This document shows positions 117 through 46,187 of a DNA stretch of 50,751 nt, one piece after another; the first letter of the stretch is position 1; every line of letters starts with the position of its first letter. The stretch lies in the sequence record MZ826699.1; one strand, given 5' to 3'. Made by a program: the position numbers and the translations under genes. The notes beneath the pieces were generated by a model. The model was not told the DNA's origin. It worked only from the letters and a program-made list of their open reading frames with translations, and did no database searches. The DNA is from Escherichia phage P817.

Positions 117-1703
117 TTATTTGCGCATTCCCGCTAATCGTTTCATTCGTGCTACCGGATCATCAAGCAAGTTCATTTCGAAGTTGCCAGCATCAACAAC
201 GTTATCCACGATGTCGTCGTGAGGATGGCTATCGTCAAAGGTGAAGCCGACCAGTTCCGCTTCCATTTCAGTAAGCATTGGGTGTGATTCAGGAAACACG
301 ATTCGCCCTGCTTTCATGATTGGTGCTGCGTCCATTGCACGCGTAACTTTATCGGTATCTCGCTGCACTGGCGTGATGTCAATCGGAAGCTTCTTGTTGA
401 TTGACTGAATCAGGCCCGTACCGCTCGCCTTGTCTTCAATGTAAACCTTGCGTAGTGACGTCTTGTTCTCCTTCGCCCACTTGAAGCAGTTTCCGTAAAA
501 GTTAAGAGCCATCGTTTCAAGGTCCGGCGCTTCCCACTTACCGCGAATGCCGTCTATGAAATATACGCGATCCTTATACTTGCCCCACAAAACAAAGACG
601 CTGTAGTCGTGTATTTCCTCTGCCTTCTGCGCTGTATCCGCAGTGGTGAACAGGTATTCGAAGCGATCCGGTTTTGGCATGTTGGCTTTTTCGCCGTCGC
701 CGTAATACTGGAACCAGTCAGACTTAAACGCGTTACCACCAAGCGCGATGGGCTTCTGCTGATACTGTGATTCAAACGTGTAAAGGTCAGCTTCGCGCAA
801 CGCCAGCAGGCTCTCCGCGCTCTCCTTTGCAGGCCAGAAAGAGAAGTGCTCAACCCCGTCAATCATTACAGATGGAGAGGATAGCACGTCTCTGTCAAAT
901 TCCTCTTTCAACCAGTCAGGAAGCGTGTCTCTGTATTCCTCAGTTACCAGCGCCGGAATGATTACCTGCTCAAACTTCATGCCACCCATACCGCCATTCA
1001 TCAGGAACCACGTCGAGTCGTTAACGTGCAGTCGCTGCTGCACAACAACGCATGGCGTTCTGTCAGTCATACGACGTGATCGCACGGTGTTTTTTAGCAG
1101 TGTATGAGCCGCCTTGCGCTTAACGGACGAATACATGTCTTTCGGTTTGTCGGGGTCATCAAGCGTTAACATTCCGGTAAAGCTCCAGGGTTTACTGGGG
1201 TCTTCCATGTACCCGCCACGCTTACCAGTTACCTGGCCGCCGATCGCACGTGATGTTAACGTCAGCCACGCCTTATCGTTATCGTTAAGTGCGGTAATAT
1301 CGCCACCGGACGCCTTAGCAAGTTTGGTAGGCCATAGCTCCTGGAACTCATCGCAACCGATAATCTCACGCGTCCTGATCCCGTTATCCTTCACCAGACT
1401 GTCAGAGAACGAAAGGTTAAGATTTCGAACCTTCGGACTCTTTAACATTCCGTAAACTGGCATGTGGATAGAGAAGATCTCAGTCTTACCGGAGCCTGGC
1501 GTGATGTTGAATATCACGTTCTGCGCCTCGCCTTTGATGATCTGCTCAACCTTCCAGCAAAGGTAAGTGAAGTGCCAGTTGCTTTGGAACTTCTGAGCCT
1601 GCCCGATCTGGAACCAGATTCTCAACATCTTTTCGAATGACTGCTCAGATAGCGCCTTTATTGCCTGCTTTCTTGCAAGGTCGAGATCTTCCCACTGGAT
1701 CAT
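117..1703 (-). CDS. terL: terminase large subunit
   Basis: 528-aa ORF; P-loop-like NITPGSGKTE; sits between a small-terminase-sized ORF and the portal at the head of the structural operon. Confidence 0.8.
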   Translation of the reverse strand: MIQWEDLDLARKQAIKALSEQSFEKMLRIWFQIGQAQKFQSNWHFTYLCWKVEQIIKGEAQNVIFNITPGSGKTEIFSIHMPVYGMLKSPKVRNLNLSFSDSLVKDNGIRTREIIGCDEFQELWPTKLAKASGGDITALNDNDKAWLTLTSRAIGGQVTGKRGGYMEDPSKPWSFTGMLTLDDPDKPKDMYSSVKRKAAHTLLKNTVRSRRMTDRTPCVVVQQRLHVNDSTWFLMNGGMGGMKFEQVIIPALVTEEYRDTLPDWLKEEFDRDVLSSPSVMIDGVEHFSFWPAKESAESLLALREADLYTFESQYQQKPIALGGNAFKSDWFQYYGDGEKANMPKPDRFEYLFTTADTAQKAEEIHDYSVFVLWGKYKDRVYFIDGIRGKWEAPDLETMALNFYGNCFKWAKENKTSLRKVYIEDKASGTGLIQSINKKLPIDITPVQRDTDKVTRAMDAAPIMKAGRIVFPESHPMLTEMEAELVGFTFDDSHPHDDIVDNVVDAGNFEMNLLDDPVARMKRLAGMRK

Positions 1704-2236
1704 AATTCCCCCAAAATATCCTTGACGGCTTCTTTAAATTCATCAGTAGTTACTGACACCGCGCCAGCCGATACGTTGTTCTGCACGTTGACTTCTGCTG
1801 CCTTGTCGATACCAATGTCTTTACCTACGAATCCAGCATTGATAAGGTTGGACGCAGCAAGCTGATATTTCTGTTCAATGATTACTGAGTCAATGAACTC
1901 CATTACCTCAGAGAATCCAGGTGACGCGCGCCAGCTTTGGATCGCACCGGAGGTAACGCCGCAATAAAGCTGGAATCCGTTGAGCGTGAACACTCGCGGC
2001 TTATGCACTAAGTTCTCGGTGACAACACCCTGGAAGCTCGCCGTTTCGATTGCCTTGATTGCCTGGTCCTCGGCCCATGAGAAATACTTAACCGCCAGGT
2101 TGAATACAGTCTCAGGCGTCATTGGGTGGCGGTGGCTCAGGTTGGCGATATCGCCATACTTTTTATTGTACAGCTCTTTGAAGTTACCAATGCGCACCTT
2201 CTCTTGAGCGGTGCTGGTGAAGTTTTCATCTTTCAT
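1700..2236 (-). CDS. terminase small subunit (putative)
   Basis: 178-aa ORF immediately upstream of terL with 4-bp overlap; first gene after terminator and promoter-like sequence. Confidence 0.5.
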   Translation of the reverse strand: MKDENFTSTAQEKVRIGNFKELYNKKYGDIANLSHRHPMTPETVFNLAVKYFSWAEDQAIKAIETASFQGVVTENLVHKPRVFTLNGFQLYCGVTSGAIQSWRASPGFSEVMEFIDSVIIEQKYQLAASNLINAGFVGKDIGIDKAAEVNVQNNVSAGAVSVTTDEFKEAVKDILGEL

Positions 2237-35662: not shown

Positions 35663-36256
35663 TTATGCCATATCTTCGGCGACGCTATAGGCGGAGAATG
35701 TCGCCCCACCTACAGTTCGATACCCATAAGGTACAGGGATCGGGTTTCCGGCTGCTGTCGTGTTTACTGCGCCGCCGAAGGCGTATGATGGTTTGTTTTT
35801 GCTGCTTTGAACCTCCATCTTTGAGCCGCCTTGCTGTGGTGAAATCATTTGCATTACCCCACCTAGCACCATTGCTCCGCCCATCATAAATGCTGACGTT
35901 GCGAACGTACCCATTAGCGCCAGTGATGCACCGCCTGTGTAGAATGCCGCAACCATCATTACAGCGCCAACAACAATCTGGAACATCCCGCCGTTTTTTG
36001 ATCCAGTAGGGATCGGAATAATGCGGACCTCTTTAGCACAAACGAATGCCGCCTCGTCATGCTGGCCTACATTCTTTCCGTCAACGAATACTGCGAAGTG
36101 CATACGTGAGCCGATCTCACTCTGCATGAACTCCTTAAACCCTTCCACCTGGGATGATAACGCCCGAATTGCTTCAGGGTATGAGTCAACATCATATTTG
36201 TGGAAGACGCCGAACCTACGACCGAGAGAACCTGATAGCTTTATTGTTTTTAACAT
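35663..36256 (-). CDS. tail assembly protein (lambda I-like)
   Basis: 197 aa; Gly/Ala/Met-rich hydrophobic C-terminal half; position between K-like and J-like genes. Confidence 0.6.
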   Translation of the reverse strand: MLKTIKLSGSLGRRFGVFHKYDVDSYPEAIRALSSQVEGFKEFMQSEIGSRMHFAVFVDGKNVGQHDEAAFVCAKEVRIIPIPTGSKNGGMFQIVVGAVMMVAAFYTGGASLALMGTFATSAFMMGGAMVLGGVMQMISPQQGGSKMEVQSSKNKPSYAFGGAVNTTAAGNPIPVPYGYRTVGGATFSAYSVAEDMA

Positions 36257-38111: not shown

Positions 38112-41021
38112 TTACGCTCCTGCTTTTCCGTTGATGTAATTGTAAACTTCGCCACCCTGTGAGCATGATTCCTGAATCATTTGCTTGAAAATCATTTTCA
38201 CGCCTTGCTCCATACCCTTCGGATCGCTACCGTTATTGATGCTAACAGGGATGCTTCCAATTGTCACGCCGCCAGCCATGATTGCACCGCTGCCGCCACC
38301 GCTTGAAGTTCCACCAACCATCCCGCCATTCGCATAACCTCGCATCATTCGATAAAGGTTATCGACGCCAATTCGCTTGGTGGCTTCCTTGGTCATGACA
38401 AATTCGCCCTTATGAACTGTGCCTGCTGGCTCATATTTTCCACCGTCTCCGGTATAGCCGCCAGTGGCGAACCAACCTGAGTTAGCGAAGGAGAACCCCT
38501 TGCCGCTGCCTCCGCCCATCATTCCTGATAGTGAGTTAAAGATTACCATCTGCGTGATCATCTTAATGATCTGGCTGATAATGCTTTTTGCAAAGTCTGC
38601 AAAGTTGGCCTGCCCCGTCATCAAGAACTCAGTCATCATGTCTGTCAAACCGTTCAGGGCGTTACTTGCGATATTTTCTACGTTTCCGTACATATCCATA
38701 GCACTCTCGCCGTAGTCCGCAAATGCTTTCTGCGCCCCAGCAAGCCAGTCTCCGCGCTTCTCATCCTCGTTGGCGTAATACTCGTTCTGCTTGTCAATCA
38801 TTTTCTTGAGCGCTTCATCATCCTGACCGCCGCCCTTAGCCATGTACTCCGCTCGGATCTTCTCAAGCTGAATCTGGCGCTCTGCCTCAAGTGTACCCAT
38901 GGCGCGCGTGGCGTTAAGGCTTTTGCTCGCTGCGTCAATCTGCATGATGAACTTCATTGAGTCGTCATTCAGTTTGTTGATCTGCTCCTGCTTAACAATC
39001 TGATCACCAAGCTCTGCCTTTTCCTTCGCCAACGAGAGCACCTTTTGCTGACTGGCAAGCAATGCTTTTTCCTCGTTGGTCAGCTTACGCTTACTCTGTG
39101 CATCCTGGAGGATTGAAATCTGAGCCTCAGTAGCCCACAAAGCACGGCGCTGGCTTGAGATCTTGTCGTTAATCGACTTGTGATCTTCCAAAACTTTAAG
39201 CTGAGCTTTGAGAACGTAAAGTTCTTTATCAAGCTGCTCGGTAGCGCCCTTGGTTACTGCGCCGTTGCTCTTAGTTTTCTTCCGGTTCTTTTCCTCAATT
39301 TCTTTAGCTTCCTTCGCTACGGCTTCCTTTGTTTCCTTGGCGTATTGCTTCTCAAGATCACGTCGGCCCTTAAGCGCATTGATGTAACCCATCTCGCCCT
39401 TTTCGACTCGCGCGTTAATAACATCCAGATCTTTTGCAAGGCTGTCGTAGGTGTCCTTGGAGTTCTTAACGATAGTCTGCTGTTCGTTGAGAATATCCTT
39501 ACCGAAATCACTCATACCTGGCAGGCTTTGCGTGGCCTTGATTGCAGAGGCGATAAAGTTAGAAATGTATTCGTCACCCTTGGCGAGAATCATTTTAACC
39601 TGAATCACCGTGCCGCTAACCACATCAATGATGAGGTTTAGAGCACCAAGCGTATGATCTCCAACCCACCCCCAGGCGTCTGATGACCATTTCTTAATGT
39701 CATTCCACATCTTTTCAAGCGGCGTTGCAGTACCTGCAATCTTGCTCATGCGTTCTTCCATGGTGTCGGCAAACAGCTTGGTCGCCTCCGTCACAGCTTC
39801 GGTTTCGCCCTTGGCTTTAACAATCCCGTTAATGTAGGTCAATTGACCTTTCTCAAGGAAGTTGTATTGCTCGTTCAGCTTCGCCAGTCCTTTTACCGGA
39901 TCATCTGCAATCTTGCCGAAGTCACTGATAATATCGCTCGTCGCTCGACCCGTTGCGGCTGACCATTCAGCGGTAGCGCGGGTAATATTCCTGATTTGGT
40001 CCTGAGTGTACTTACCACTTTTCGCAAGCTCAGTAGCAATTTCTCGCACAGATCCGATAGTCGCGTTGCTGGTATCCGCAATTTTGTTTGCAATCTGGTC
40101 AAGGTCCGCCGCGCTCGCCGCTGCAAATCCGCCAGTCTCAATCAAGGCGTTTTTCATATCTGTGATGGAGCGGTAGGAGTCGTAACCAGCTTTAGCAAGG
40201 CCAGCAAGTGCGATACCCATAGCGCCCATACCAACCGTTACCGGATTAAGGTAAGAAAGCAAAACTTTAAACGTATTCCCAACACCGCCGAACGAATCCT
40301 TGATCTGCCCGCCCTGCTGGATTGCAACCAGCCATACAGGCATACCGGAAGCAAGGGAGGTAACAACGTCAGTGATCTGCATTGGCAAGATGCGCAGCGC
40401 GTTCTTGTACTCGCCAGCGGAAAGGCCAGCCGCATTTGTCGCTACAGTCTGCTTGTTCATCGCTGCAATTAAAGGTGCGGCCTGAGTCGATACGCCAAGC
40501 TGTGCCGCCTTCAATTCGAGAAGCTCAGTCTTGGTCATTGTCGCAGCGTTAGCTTGTTCTTGCAGTGATTTAAGGAACCTGTCAGCGTCCTTTGTTGCCG
40601 CCTCTTTGGCTTTTGAGTTAGCCATAGCCGCACGGCCCTCTTCGGTCAGCGCCATCTTGGATCGGTTAAGCGCATTGATCTGAGTTTCAATCATGCTTGA
40701 CAGATTGAAGAACTCGGCGTCTGGAACGAGGCCTTTACTCCAGAGGTTATCCAGGTCAACGCTCGCCTTCTGCAACTGGCGCATTTTTCCGATTGTAGGA
40801 TCAATGGCTTTCTCTACGTCGGCAAATTCTTTCTTCTGGCGCTTAACCTCGTTGTTGAACTCTTTCATCTTCTGCTTTGCTACTTGCTCAGCATCAATGA
40901 AATTGTCAAAGCTCTTTCCGGCTGTGTTGTTCGCCCTGGATAAGTCATCCAGAGATTTAACCGCCGCATCAACCTGGGATACGTCAACCCCAAGCGATAG
41001 CCCTGCAAATTTATCTGTCAT
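38112..41021 (-). CDS. tail tape measure protein
   Basis: 969 aa, coiled-coil-rich with Gly-rich C-terminal region; follows G/G-T chaperone. Confidence 0.85.
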
Positions 41022-41057
41022 AAAACCCCCATACGAAAAAAGCGCCCGTAGGCGCTA

Positions 41058-41686
41058 TTATTTTTTGTGCATCTGCTTAAGCGCTTCCGCTTCCATCACA
41101 CGCACATCATTTAAGGCCATTTCTTCACAATCTATTTTATAGATTCGAAATAGCATAGGCAAGACATTATAATCAAGCCCGTAGGCTCCGGCTCCGGCAG
41201 ATCTCCATTGCGTTTGCATCGCGGTGAATACTTCCCATGACTGGTATGTTTCCTCGTCGAACTGCAATATCTCCGGCTCTTCGTTGTCGTAGTCTTCACG
41301 GGTTAATCCGTATGCCTCTAGTTCTGCATCTGTGGGCGTTCGCCTGAATAGTAGTTCGACCGCCCGTTTTAGTTTTTTACTCGGTAGCCAGCCAGTGCTT
41401 GAGTGTAGGTTGAGATCAGGCCACCAACAACGGCAGGGTAACTATCAACCAGCTTGTTAATGTTTTCATCATTGAACTCATCCTCAAGCTCCCACCCGCT
41501 AGCCAGGGATTTTACAAACTGAGCACCAGTCTGATTGCTGGCTTCTTTCAGCGTGGCGTTAAGTTCTGATGACGTTAGCGCCTTGACAGTGAATGAAAAC
41601 GAAGCTTCAACGCCGTTCGGCAATACGAATTTAACCGGAAGCGGGAAGTCTGGCAGGCGTTCAGATAGGGTTACTTTAAAGCTCAT
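41058..41686 (-). CDS. tail assembly chaperone G-T fusion produced by -1 frameshift
   Basis: Frame of ORF 41058..41267 stays open back to slippery heptamer A AAA AAC at the 3' end of G ORF. Confidence 0.6.
41369..41686 (-). CDS. tail assembly chaperone (lambda G-like)
   Basis: 105 aa between major tail and tape measure; ends ...RVKN at slippery site. Confidence 0.65.
   Translation of the reverse strand: MSFKVTLSERLPDFPLPVKFVLPNGVEASFSFTVKALTSSELNATLKEASNQTGAQFVKSLASGWELEDEFNDENINKLVDSYPAVVGGLISTYTQALAGYRVKN
41372..41378 (-). promoter_or_regulatory. -1 programmed ribosomal frameshift slippery heptamer A AAA AAC
   Basis: Canonical X XXY YYZ heptamer overlapping last codons of G ORF. Confidence 0.6.
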
Positions 41687-41726
41687 GGTTTTTTCCTCTT
41701 TGTTTGAATTGGTGATATTAAATCAC

Positions 41727-41753
41727 AAATAGAAAAAGGGGGCAATAGCCCCC
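41727..41753 (-). terminator. intrinsic terminator (GGGGGC-TATT-GCCCCC + T5) after major tail gene
   Basis: Perfect 6-bp GC stem plus U-tract. Confidence 0.65.
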
Positions 41754-41758
41754 TTGCA

Positions 41759-42430
41759 TTACTCAGATTCTTTCATGTGCGTGTATTTGCCATCAAGCGA
41801 GATGGTCAGGATGGTCGTTTCATCTTCGTTCATCACCGTGTTAGGGATGTCATCGAAAGATGGCGTGCCAGAGAAGGTGCGAATCGGATAGCTTGCCTTC
41901 GGTACAAACATTCGCATAGCGCGCGTCTTGCCGTCTTCGTCGTAACCAATCAGAAGCTGCGTGATTGGGTTGGAGTAGTCGAAGTCGAACGTATACGCGA
42001 TGGACGTCGCAGATTTAAAGGTCGGGATCTGCTTTTCACGGTCATCTGAAAGGCACTGCTTGGTATAGAACTGCTGCTCGCCACCAGATTTTGCGATGTC
42101 GCTCACGCATGGAATCTCAATCCAGCTTTCGATCTTAACGAAGGTGGAGGCGCCGCCAGCGGGGAACTTGTTAAGGTCAGCCGTGGAAGTGTTCTTGTCT
42201 CCTTCAAGCGTGATTGATGTGTCGCTAACCACTTCTTTTACGCGCATTACGCGGTTTTTAAATGCAGCCCATACGCTTTCAAGCACCAGGACGTAATCGC
42301 CTTTCACAATGCCAGTGGTTGACGCAACAGTCGCCACCGGATTTTCCGCGTTACTCACTGCGGTTGCTTCGATTTCGGTGGCTGCTCGGGTCTGCTCAAT
42401 AAAGATTTGGGAACCGTTAGGAAGTGCCAT
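41759..42430 (-). CDS. major tail (tube) protein
   Basis: 223 aa; directly upstream of chaperone/tape measure; followed by strong terminator. Confidence 0.7.
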   Translation of the reverse strand: MALPNGSQIFIEQTRAATEIEATAVSNAENPVATVASTTGIVKGDYVLVLESVWAAFKNRVMRVKEVVSDTSITLEGDKNTSTADLNKFPAGGASTFVKIESWIEIPCVSDIAKSGGEQQFYTKQCLSDDREKQIPTFKSATSIAYTFDFDYSNPITQLLIGYDEDGKTRAMRMFVPKASYPIRTFSGTPSFDDIPNTVMNEDETTILTISLDGKYTHMKESE

Positions 42431-45575: not shown

Positions 45576-46187
45576 TTAAGCCGCCGCGCCAGGGTCGCCC
45601 TTGTCACCTTTTGGACCTTGAGGACCAGTGTCACCTTTATCGCCTTTCGGACCTTGAGGGCCAGTGTCACCTTTCGCACCTTGAGGACCAACAACGGGAG
45701 CACCAGCAGATTGAAGCAACTGAATCTGAACGAGATCATATGTAGCATTATCAGATGATAACTTCTGACCAGTAAATTTATAACCAGTTGCAATATCGCC
45801 ATCTCGAGCAACTACGCCATCTGAGTTAAACAATACCTGCTTGCCGTAAGAGTAATCGTCATCAAGTAAACCAGCCTTAACGACAGGAACCCATACGCGA
45901 CCATGTGTAAGAACGTTTACAGCAATTCCGTCTTCATATTCACCACTTGCAGAGTATGCGTGACTCATAACTGAAACGCCAATCAATGGTAGAGAACTGT
46001 CAGTAGCAACCTTGACTACTTTGTGCCCGTCAACGGCTTGTACTTCACTCACTGCGAGAAGTCGCCCGACAGGGATTGAACCATCAGCAGCGCAAGCCCC
46101 GTCAACATTGTAAAGGGAGGTGTCTGCGATTTGACCAGCATACGCTTTAGCGCGATGTACGGTGTAAGAAGCTTTGATTAGTGCCAT
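45576..46187 (-). CDS. putative head decoration/cement protein with C-terminal collagen-like (Gly-X-Y)n tail
   Basis: Position between scaffold and capsid genes; C-terminus GPQGAKGDTGPQGPKGDKGDTGPQGPKGDKGDPG. Confidence 0.45.
   Translation of the reverse strand: MALIKASYTVHRAKAYAGQIADTSLYNVDGACAADGSIPVGRLLAVSEVQAVDGHKVVKVATDSSLPLIGVSVMSHAYSASGEYEDGIAVNVLTHGRVWVPVVKAGLLDDDYSYGKQVLFNSDGVVARDGDIATGYKFTGQKLSSDNATYDLVQIQLLQSAGAPVVGPQGAKGDTGPQGPKGDKGDTGPQGPKGDKGDPGAAA
45579..45700 (-). repeat. tandem DNA repeats encoding collagen-like Gly-X-Y triplets
   Basis: Repeated ggaccttgagg/ccagtgtcacc units of about 30 bp. Confidence 0.7.

Follow-up and report, generated by a model that had tools for sequence, protein, structure and literature searches.

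Frameshifted tail assembly chaperones in lambda and in T1-like phages

The G/GT frameshift is a conserved device of long-tailed phages (PMC5009743). In phage lambda, both the G:GT ratio (30:1) and the binding partners of the two products have been measured (Levin, Hendrix & Casjens 1993; Xu, Hendrix & Duda 2004, 2013, 2014; as summarized in PMC5009743). A frameshift of this kind has also been mentioned for T1-like phages in the genome papers of Citrobacter phage Stevie and Klebsiella phage Skenny. These two phages have the heptamer A AAA AAC, the adjacent TAA, the -1 frame, and the gene order all as in Escherichia phage P817, the subject of this analysis. The homologous pair of Stevie (CPT_Stevie15/16) is ∼59% identical to the fused P817 query, and its record, KM236241, carries the joined coding sequence (CDS).

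Outside tail assembly, the same A_AAA_AAC heptamer is found in insA-insB' of IS1, an unrelated gene system (transposase), in which slippage on it in E. coli has been proven and yields a -1 fusion at low efficiency, without an established stimulator. The IS1 heptamer is not known to be directly adjoined by a stop codon. The frameshift sites of dnaX and IS911/IS3 have an A-rich heptamer followed after 5 to 9 nt by a hairpin, an arrangement seen likewise, at 6 to 7 nt, in the T1-type relatives of P817. However, the heptamer of those sites is A AAA AAG, with efficiencies in the tens of percent, whereas P817 has A AAA AAC, and its predicted hairpin is not clearly supported.

The chaperone locus of phage P817

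The window analyzed here is the whole 50,751-nt stretch of P817 DNA (sequence record MZ826699.1). The chaperone region is 96 to 98% identical to that of a set of E. coli phages that belong to the genus Nouzillyvirus, family Drexlerviridae (T1-like), and P817 is a member of this genus. All genes of the region are on the minus strand, in the order tail tube, G, T, tape measure, and the features discussed below are as follows:

41759..42430, minus strand: gene for the major tail (tube) protein, the upstream neighbor (PF08813, E value 7e-48)
41694..41699, minus strand: Shine-Dalgarno-like AGAGGA, 7 nt 5' of the G start codon, read from the sequence
41369..41686, minus strand: G, tail assembly (tape measure) chaperone, 105 amino acids (aa), by standard decoding; Pfam PF08748 (Phage_TAC_4), phrog_569, and phrog_17368
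41372..41378, minus strand: slippery heptamer A AAA AAC, of the form X XXY YYZ in the G register, adjoined by the G stop codon
41334..41365, minus strand: candidate hairpin GGGCG.TCG ... CGA.CGCCC, predicted at -12.8 kcal/mol, beginning 6 nt after the heptamer
41058..41378, minus strand: T segment in the -1 frame, 106 codons plus TAA, from its translation, the PF08809 (DUF1799) match, and its coding signature
41058..41686, minus strand: predicted GT fusion, 209 aa, made of G residues 1 to 103, the junction, and the T segment; homologous joined CDS in Stevie (KM236241)
38112..41021, minus strand: gene for the tape measure protein, the downstream neighbor (PF06791 and PF09718)

The G gene begins with the ATG at 41686 and ends with the TAA at 41369..41371 on the minus strand. 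The C terminus of its product reads ...ALAGYRVKN, and translation bears out the reading of its last codons as GTA AAA AAC TAA in the initial annotation. Around the G stop, the -1 frame is free of stop codons over a stretch that begins 70 nt ahead of it and extends 311 nt beyond it. Translated from 41378 on the minus strand, it begins KKLKRAV and reads KKLKRAVELLFRRTPTDAELEAYGL...KQMHKK up to the TAA at 41058..41060, so that the 106 codons of this segment are free of stops, as had been claimed for the stretch from the heptamer through the open reading frame (ORF) 41058..41267. The start-codon survey identified a TTG at codon 38 (position 41267) as the first in-frame start codon of the T frame; it falls within the Pfam and PHROG matches of that frame, and the listed ORF 41058..41267 (69 aa, TTG start) is merely the tail part of the T open frame. 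Joining the two frames gives a product of 209 aa, against the roughly 210 aa estimated initially, and the pair does lie upstream of the tape measure gene, with T ending at 41058 and the tape measure gene occupying 38112..41021. Decoding of AAC before the slip would place Asn at the junction of GT, and decoding after it would place Lys there. The junction peptide ...ALAGYRVKNLKRAVE would correspond to AAC read before the slip (whether in a tandem slip or in a slip during a pause at the stop codon), and ...VKKLKRAVE would correspond to tRNA-Lys slipping alone.

In its general layout, this locus resembles that of lambda gpG/gpGT. In both phages, the tail tube and tape measure genes are separated by a pair of ORFs, the second of which is in the -1 frame; the slip heptamer is located close to the 3' end of the G gene; and the short and long products share the N-terminal domain. 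However, the lambda proteins belong to PF06894 and PF06223 and those of P817 belong to PF08748 and PF08809, with an hhalign probability below 1%. The lambda heptamer is G GGA AAG, with the stop located 5 codons further on, whereas that of P817 is A AAA AAC, with the stop adjacent. The product ratio and the binding partners have been measured in lambda, whereas for P817 we infer them.

Protein families of the two halves

The P817 pair scores above the curated Pfam thresholds for both halves of the T1-type chaperone pair. The G protein matches Phage_TAC_4 (PF08748) over its full length (E value 9.9e-23; 81.1 bits against a cut-off of 21.1), and the T frame matches DUF1799 (PF08809), beginning at profile position 2 (E value 7.9e-14; 52.1 bits against a cut-off of 26). 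Both also match phrog_17368, a profile of 213 positions, G at positions 4 to 107 (E value 8e-28) and the -1 frame at positions 107 to 211 (E value 1e-47). Given that a single profile spans G and T, this family is one built from fused proteins. The Phage_TAC_4 and DUF1799 matches, the fused PHROG profile, and the joined CDS in Stevie together support the initial assignment of the locus to the tail chaperone arrangement.

The labels “G” and “T” taken over from the initial annotation hold by position and analogy but do not denote the lambda gpG and gpT families: the Pfam families are different, and profile comparison gave no homology. Pfam gave no hits to PF06894 (gpG) or PF06223 (gpT) at E values up to 0.1, and hhalign with an 8-sequence profile returned probabilities of 0.1% against lambda G and 0.8% against lambda T. 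A 14-column local alignment to lambda (GLDYNVLPMLF versus GLTYTVLSLFF; E value 0.066) was rejected as not significant. A sequence search of the PDB produced zero matches at E values up to 1, and NCBIfam assigned no family. A single-sequence AlphaFold2 model of GT was unusable (mean pLDDT, 39.9; pTM, 0.30).

Slippery heptamers elsewhere in the window

The long -1 frame at the G/T heptamer is more than a chance occurrence. In the window ORFs of at least 100 aa, there are 43 in-frame X XXY YYZ heptamers, and the median open length of the -1 frame at these sites is 10 codons. An open length of at least 100 codons is seen at 3 of the 43, and the G/T site is the only one with a heptamer directly abutting the stop codon.

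The heptamers of the other two long -1 frames were considered and rejected. The first, T TTG GGG at 1709..1715 on the minus strand, is found two codons ahead of the small terminase stop and represents an ordinary gene overlap: the small terminase ORF (1700..2236, minus strand) and the large terminase ORF (117..1703) overlap by 4 nt, and the latter has its own ATG in the -1 frame. The second is another A AAA AAC, at 35993..35999 on the minus strand, located inside the ORF 35663..36256, which encodes a lambda I-like protein (PF06805). Its -1 frame is open for 104 codons. It was discarded as a nonconserved chance case, since the -1 product would be Arg-rich and T1 gp34 has no heptamer at that place.

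Conservation of the junction in related phages

A tblastn search with the fused GT sequence matched 1,156 phage records. In 1,012 of these, the query coverage was 80% or more, and the match was almost always split into two parts that lay in different frames. From 131 collected loci, 104 distinct homologous junctions were obtained. Conservation of the heptamer and of the downstream frame among relatives, which the initial annotation had proposed as a check, is evident in this set: at 83 of the 104 junctions, the G stop is immediately preceded by a canonical X XXY YYZ heptamer in the G register, and of the 97 junctions that have a detectable T, 94 have it in the -1 frame. The canonical heptamers comprise A AAA AAC (56 junctions), G GGA AAC (19), T TTA AAC (7), and G GGA AAG (1), so that between lineages the letters vary while the slippery form and its register are constant, down to 28% identity in G. 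T1, Rtp, and the Dhillonvirus EP23 all show A AAA AAC TAA. The G stop, which may be TAA, TGA, or TAG but is never replaced by a sense codon, abuts the heptamer in all 83 canonical cases. Throughout the first set of loci, the -1 frame is open for 299 to 335 nt, the sole exception being an unverified assembly.

At a further 18 of the 104 junctions, the slip site is reduced to a lysine tetramer (A AAA G or A AAG) in the same register, with the stop in the identical register in every one of them. These junctions read GCA AAA GTT/GTC TAA in Webervirus, as confirmed in phage NPat, and GCA AAG GTC TAA in another group. Given that the full heptamer is missing in these 18 cases, the tandem-slip form is not strictly required. 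Whole lineages have the single-tRNA-Lys tetramer (loci L006-L011, L113-L130, and L133 in Webervirus; L109-L112 and L116), and the T1-type hairpin is absent from them.

The remaining 3 of the 104 junctions have a run of five A residues (A5) in place of A6, so that T comes to lie in the +1 frame. The records in question, L048/L051 (Citrobacter phage HCF1), L088, and L123, read GTAAAAACTAA, and that of HCF1 is flagged UNVERIFIED_ASMBLY. The A5 run in these three deposited genomes is probably a homopolymer sequencing error, one worth correcting.

Homopolymer runs are error-prone, and the differences in run length among these three relatives might be taken to mean that the split itself is an artefact, i.e., that one chaperone gene has been disrupted, either through an error in sequencing or through a mutation of recent date. 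This explanation is refuted by the two-frame arrangement in about 1,000 independent phage records and in 101 of the 104 distinct junctions, and the probability left to it is negligible. The same observations, a homopolymer of six A residues at the site and a varying run length in three related records, could also be seen as favoring transcriptional slippage, whereby RNA polymerase would add one A to the A6 run and thus bring G and T into one frame. Efficient slippage by bacterial RNA polymerase requires runs of about 8 to 9 residues or more. The sites of the relatives (G GGA AAC, T TTA AAC, A AAA G, and A AAG) have no long homopolymer, which makes transcriptional slippage unlikely; moreover, the feature that is conserved is the slippery form in the codon register and not the length of the run. 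As for the A5 variants, they place T in the +1 frame, which is not the useful one, and the flagged assembly among them points to sequencing error. Slippage during transcription is accordingly a very improbable source of the long product.

That T is translated as a continuation of G is further indicated by the coding signature of the 78 nt directly 3' of the G stop, which were compared in 61 distinct Drexlerviridae sequences. The share of single-base codon differences that are synonymous is 79% in the T frame, whereas the two remaining frames give 8.5% and 15%, and the codon entropy of the T frame is 1.37 at the third position versus 0.68 at the first and 0.53 at the second. The survey of start codons found none conserved in the T frame among the relatives; the first one in T1 is at codon 44. 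The combination of a coding signature with the absence of a start codon from this post-stop stretch in P817 means that the sequence is translated and can be reached only from G.

These data also bear on the way in which T has been annotated so far in the genus Nouzillyvirus, by implication as a separate small gene with its own start (the TTG at 41267 or an ATG at codon 54), next to which the heptamer would be incidental. Records of close relatives call a hypothetical protein of 54 to 69 aa or of 82 aa in this region, codon 10 of the T frame is an ATG in phage GaoY1-9D, for which an ORF of 97 aa is annotated, and in P817 the TTG is preceded, 3 nt upstream, by GGAG. However, a spacing of 3 nt is too short for a Shine-Dalgarno sequence, and the 37 codons before the TTG bear the clear T-frame coding signature. 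That same stretch accounts for the start of the PHROG match at profile position 107 and of the DUF1799 match at position 2. No T-frame start is shared across the relatives, and the slippery form is kept at the exact junction in the large majority of the lineage variants. Independent initiation of T is therefore very improbable.

The same chaperone pair is also encoded in contigs of 37 to 107 kb (loci L012-L045, e.g., relatives of Pseudomonas phage phiPMW). The pairs from the large genomes, those of ∼100-kb phages that are otherwise unrelated to T1, have G GGA AAC or T TTA AAC with an adjacent stop. The presence of the pair in such phages indicates that this module is widely distributed.

Proposed decoding of G and GT

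The arrangement described above is very probably a programmed -1 ribosomal frameshift on A AAA AAC that produces the two forms of a tail assembly chaperone, as judged from the sequence comparisons. Most ribosomes that start at the ATG at 41686 would stop at the TAA at 41371..41369 and release the 105-aa G. A small fraction would slip by -1 on A AAA AAC, with tRNA-Lys moving from AAA to AAA and tRNA-Asn moving from AAC to AAA, and would then read CUA AAA CGG and onwards to the TAA at 41060..41058, yielding the 209-aa GT. By analogy with lambda, the shared G part could be expected to bind the tape measure protein, with T recruiting the tail tube protein, while a fixed excess of G over GT would be set by the decoding itself. 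G and GT are both expected to be required and to be absent from the virion, again as in the lambda model. We infer the slip itself as well as its efficiency, which is probably low; the literature examined contains no protein-level report of GT for T1-like phages, including P817.

The heptamers used by this chaperone family are weak slip motifs. In E. coli reporters, A_AAA_AAC shifted at 0.16% without a stimulator and at 0.74% with the strong IS3 pseudoknot, and G_GGA_AAC and U_UUA_AAC behaved similarly; the lambda heptamer G_GGA_AAG gave 0.28% without a stimulator and 43% with the IS3 pseudoknot. The tetramers A_AAG and A_AAA, for their part, are among the four that promote -1 shifting in E. 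coli. Given the weakness of A_AAA_AAC in the reporters, the yield of GT may fall far below the ∼1:30 of lambda unless the local context helps.

Candidate stimulators

The downstream hairpin of P817 (41334..41365) is a lineage-specific candidate stimulator, predicted by folding and not established for this phage. Its z score is -1.86 versus dinucleotide shuffles but -0.71 versus synonymous recoding, which is not distinguishable from chance. The hairpin of the T1 type, GGGCGGTTT...AAACCGCCC, begins 6 to 7 nt after the heptamer, and none of 400 synonymous recodings matched its stability (z scores of -3.3 to -4.8); the P817 hairpin is altered relative to it. Two compensatory pairs separate the two versions, both coming from a single lineage. 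By pair counts, 77% of the cells are paired versus 37 to 50% in slid controls, whereas the covariation score, 0.144, is no better than the 0.138 of one slid control. Several lineages have no such hairpin. RNAalifold found no consensus structure in 50 junction sequences, so that a stimulator fold common to the whole family was rejected. On the 5' side of the heptamer, inspection by eye revealed no convincing Shine-Dalgarno-like stimulator; the GCN GGN found there is fixed by the Ala-Gly codons.

The constancy of the stop codon suggests another possible stimulator. The slip might take place after AAC has been decoded, with the stop codon in the empty A site and the tRNAs in the E and P sites, so that the termination pause would be the conserved stimulator, and hairpins would be later additions confined to certain lineages, among them the T1 type. 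Several observations are compatible with such a pause: the stop adjoins every canonical heptamer and keeps its register in the tetramer variants; in lambda, which has a chaperone of another family, it is 5 codons downstream; the heptamers in use are weak ones that end in AAC; and no downstream structure is conserved across the family. However, the stop codon equally serves just to terminate G, and since it overlaps a Leu codon conserved in the T frame, its bases are under constraint for that reason as well, so that its retention needs no role in slippage. Moreover, the hairpin is significantly selected in the T1-type lineages and may be the stimulator there. A stimulatory pause at the stop codon is less likely than not. 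If true, the G/GT device of this family would be a variant tuned by the stop codon, unlike that of lambda.

The comparison of junctions shows several features of possible interest to the recoding field, namely, the weak AAC-ending heptamer that always abuts the stop, the Webervirus tetramers, and the lineage-specific hairpin.

Annotation in Nouzillyvirus records

The G/GT feature is real and conserved and belongs to already known biology but is missing from the Nouzillyvirus annotation inspected here. None of the three Nouzillyvirus records that were inspected contains a joined GT CDS; the difference from the Stevie record, which does have one, is not a biological one. The exact G protein is deposited for Escherichia phage P817 under the accession UAV84757.1 and the name “hypothetical protein,” and the exact 69-aa fragment of T is likewise deposited as a hypothetical protein. 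In the Nouzillyvirus records, G is either called “hypothetical” or mislabeled as “tail length tape measure protein,” whereas T appears as a truncated hypothetical protein of 54 to 69 aa. Exact look-up of three Nouzillyvirus GT fusions and of a reconstructed Stevie GT returned no match, which is a weak indication, since the choice of the start and of the junction residue affects such matching.

The initial annotation had argued that the ORF calls in this region should be merged. A joined GT CDS is valid, but it should be added beside G, which stays a CDS of its own. For Nouzillyvirus, the correction would be to keep G and add the joined 209-aa GT CDS. Phage engineering and proteomics both depend on having the right isoforms.

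Neighboring features and side observations

Hairpins resembling intrinsic terminators are found on both sides of the chaperone pair, each with a terminator annotated at the equivalent position in T1:

41736..41755, minus strand: intrinsic-terminator-like hairpin in the interval between the tail tube gene and G
41041..41056, minus strand: intrinsic-terminator-like hairpin in the interval between the T stop and the start of the tape measure gene

Through partial read-through, these two hairpins may set a gradient of expression that decreases from the tube protein to the chaperone and then to the tape measure protein. Rfam at its gathering thresholds found no families in the window, and ARAGORN found no tRNA genes in it.

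Elsewhere in the window, the capsid cement (decoration) protein encoded at 45576..46187 on the minus strand (PF22758) has a C-terminal tail of collagen-like Gly-X-Y repeats (GPQGAKGDTGPQGPKGDKGDTGPQGPKGDKGDPG). The score of this tail against the Pfam Collagen family is just below the cut-off.
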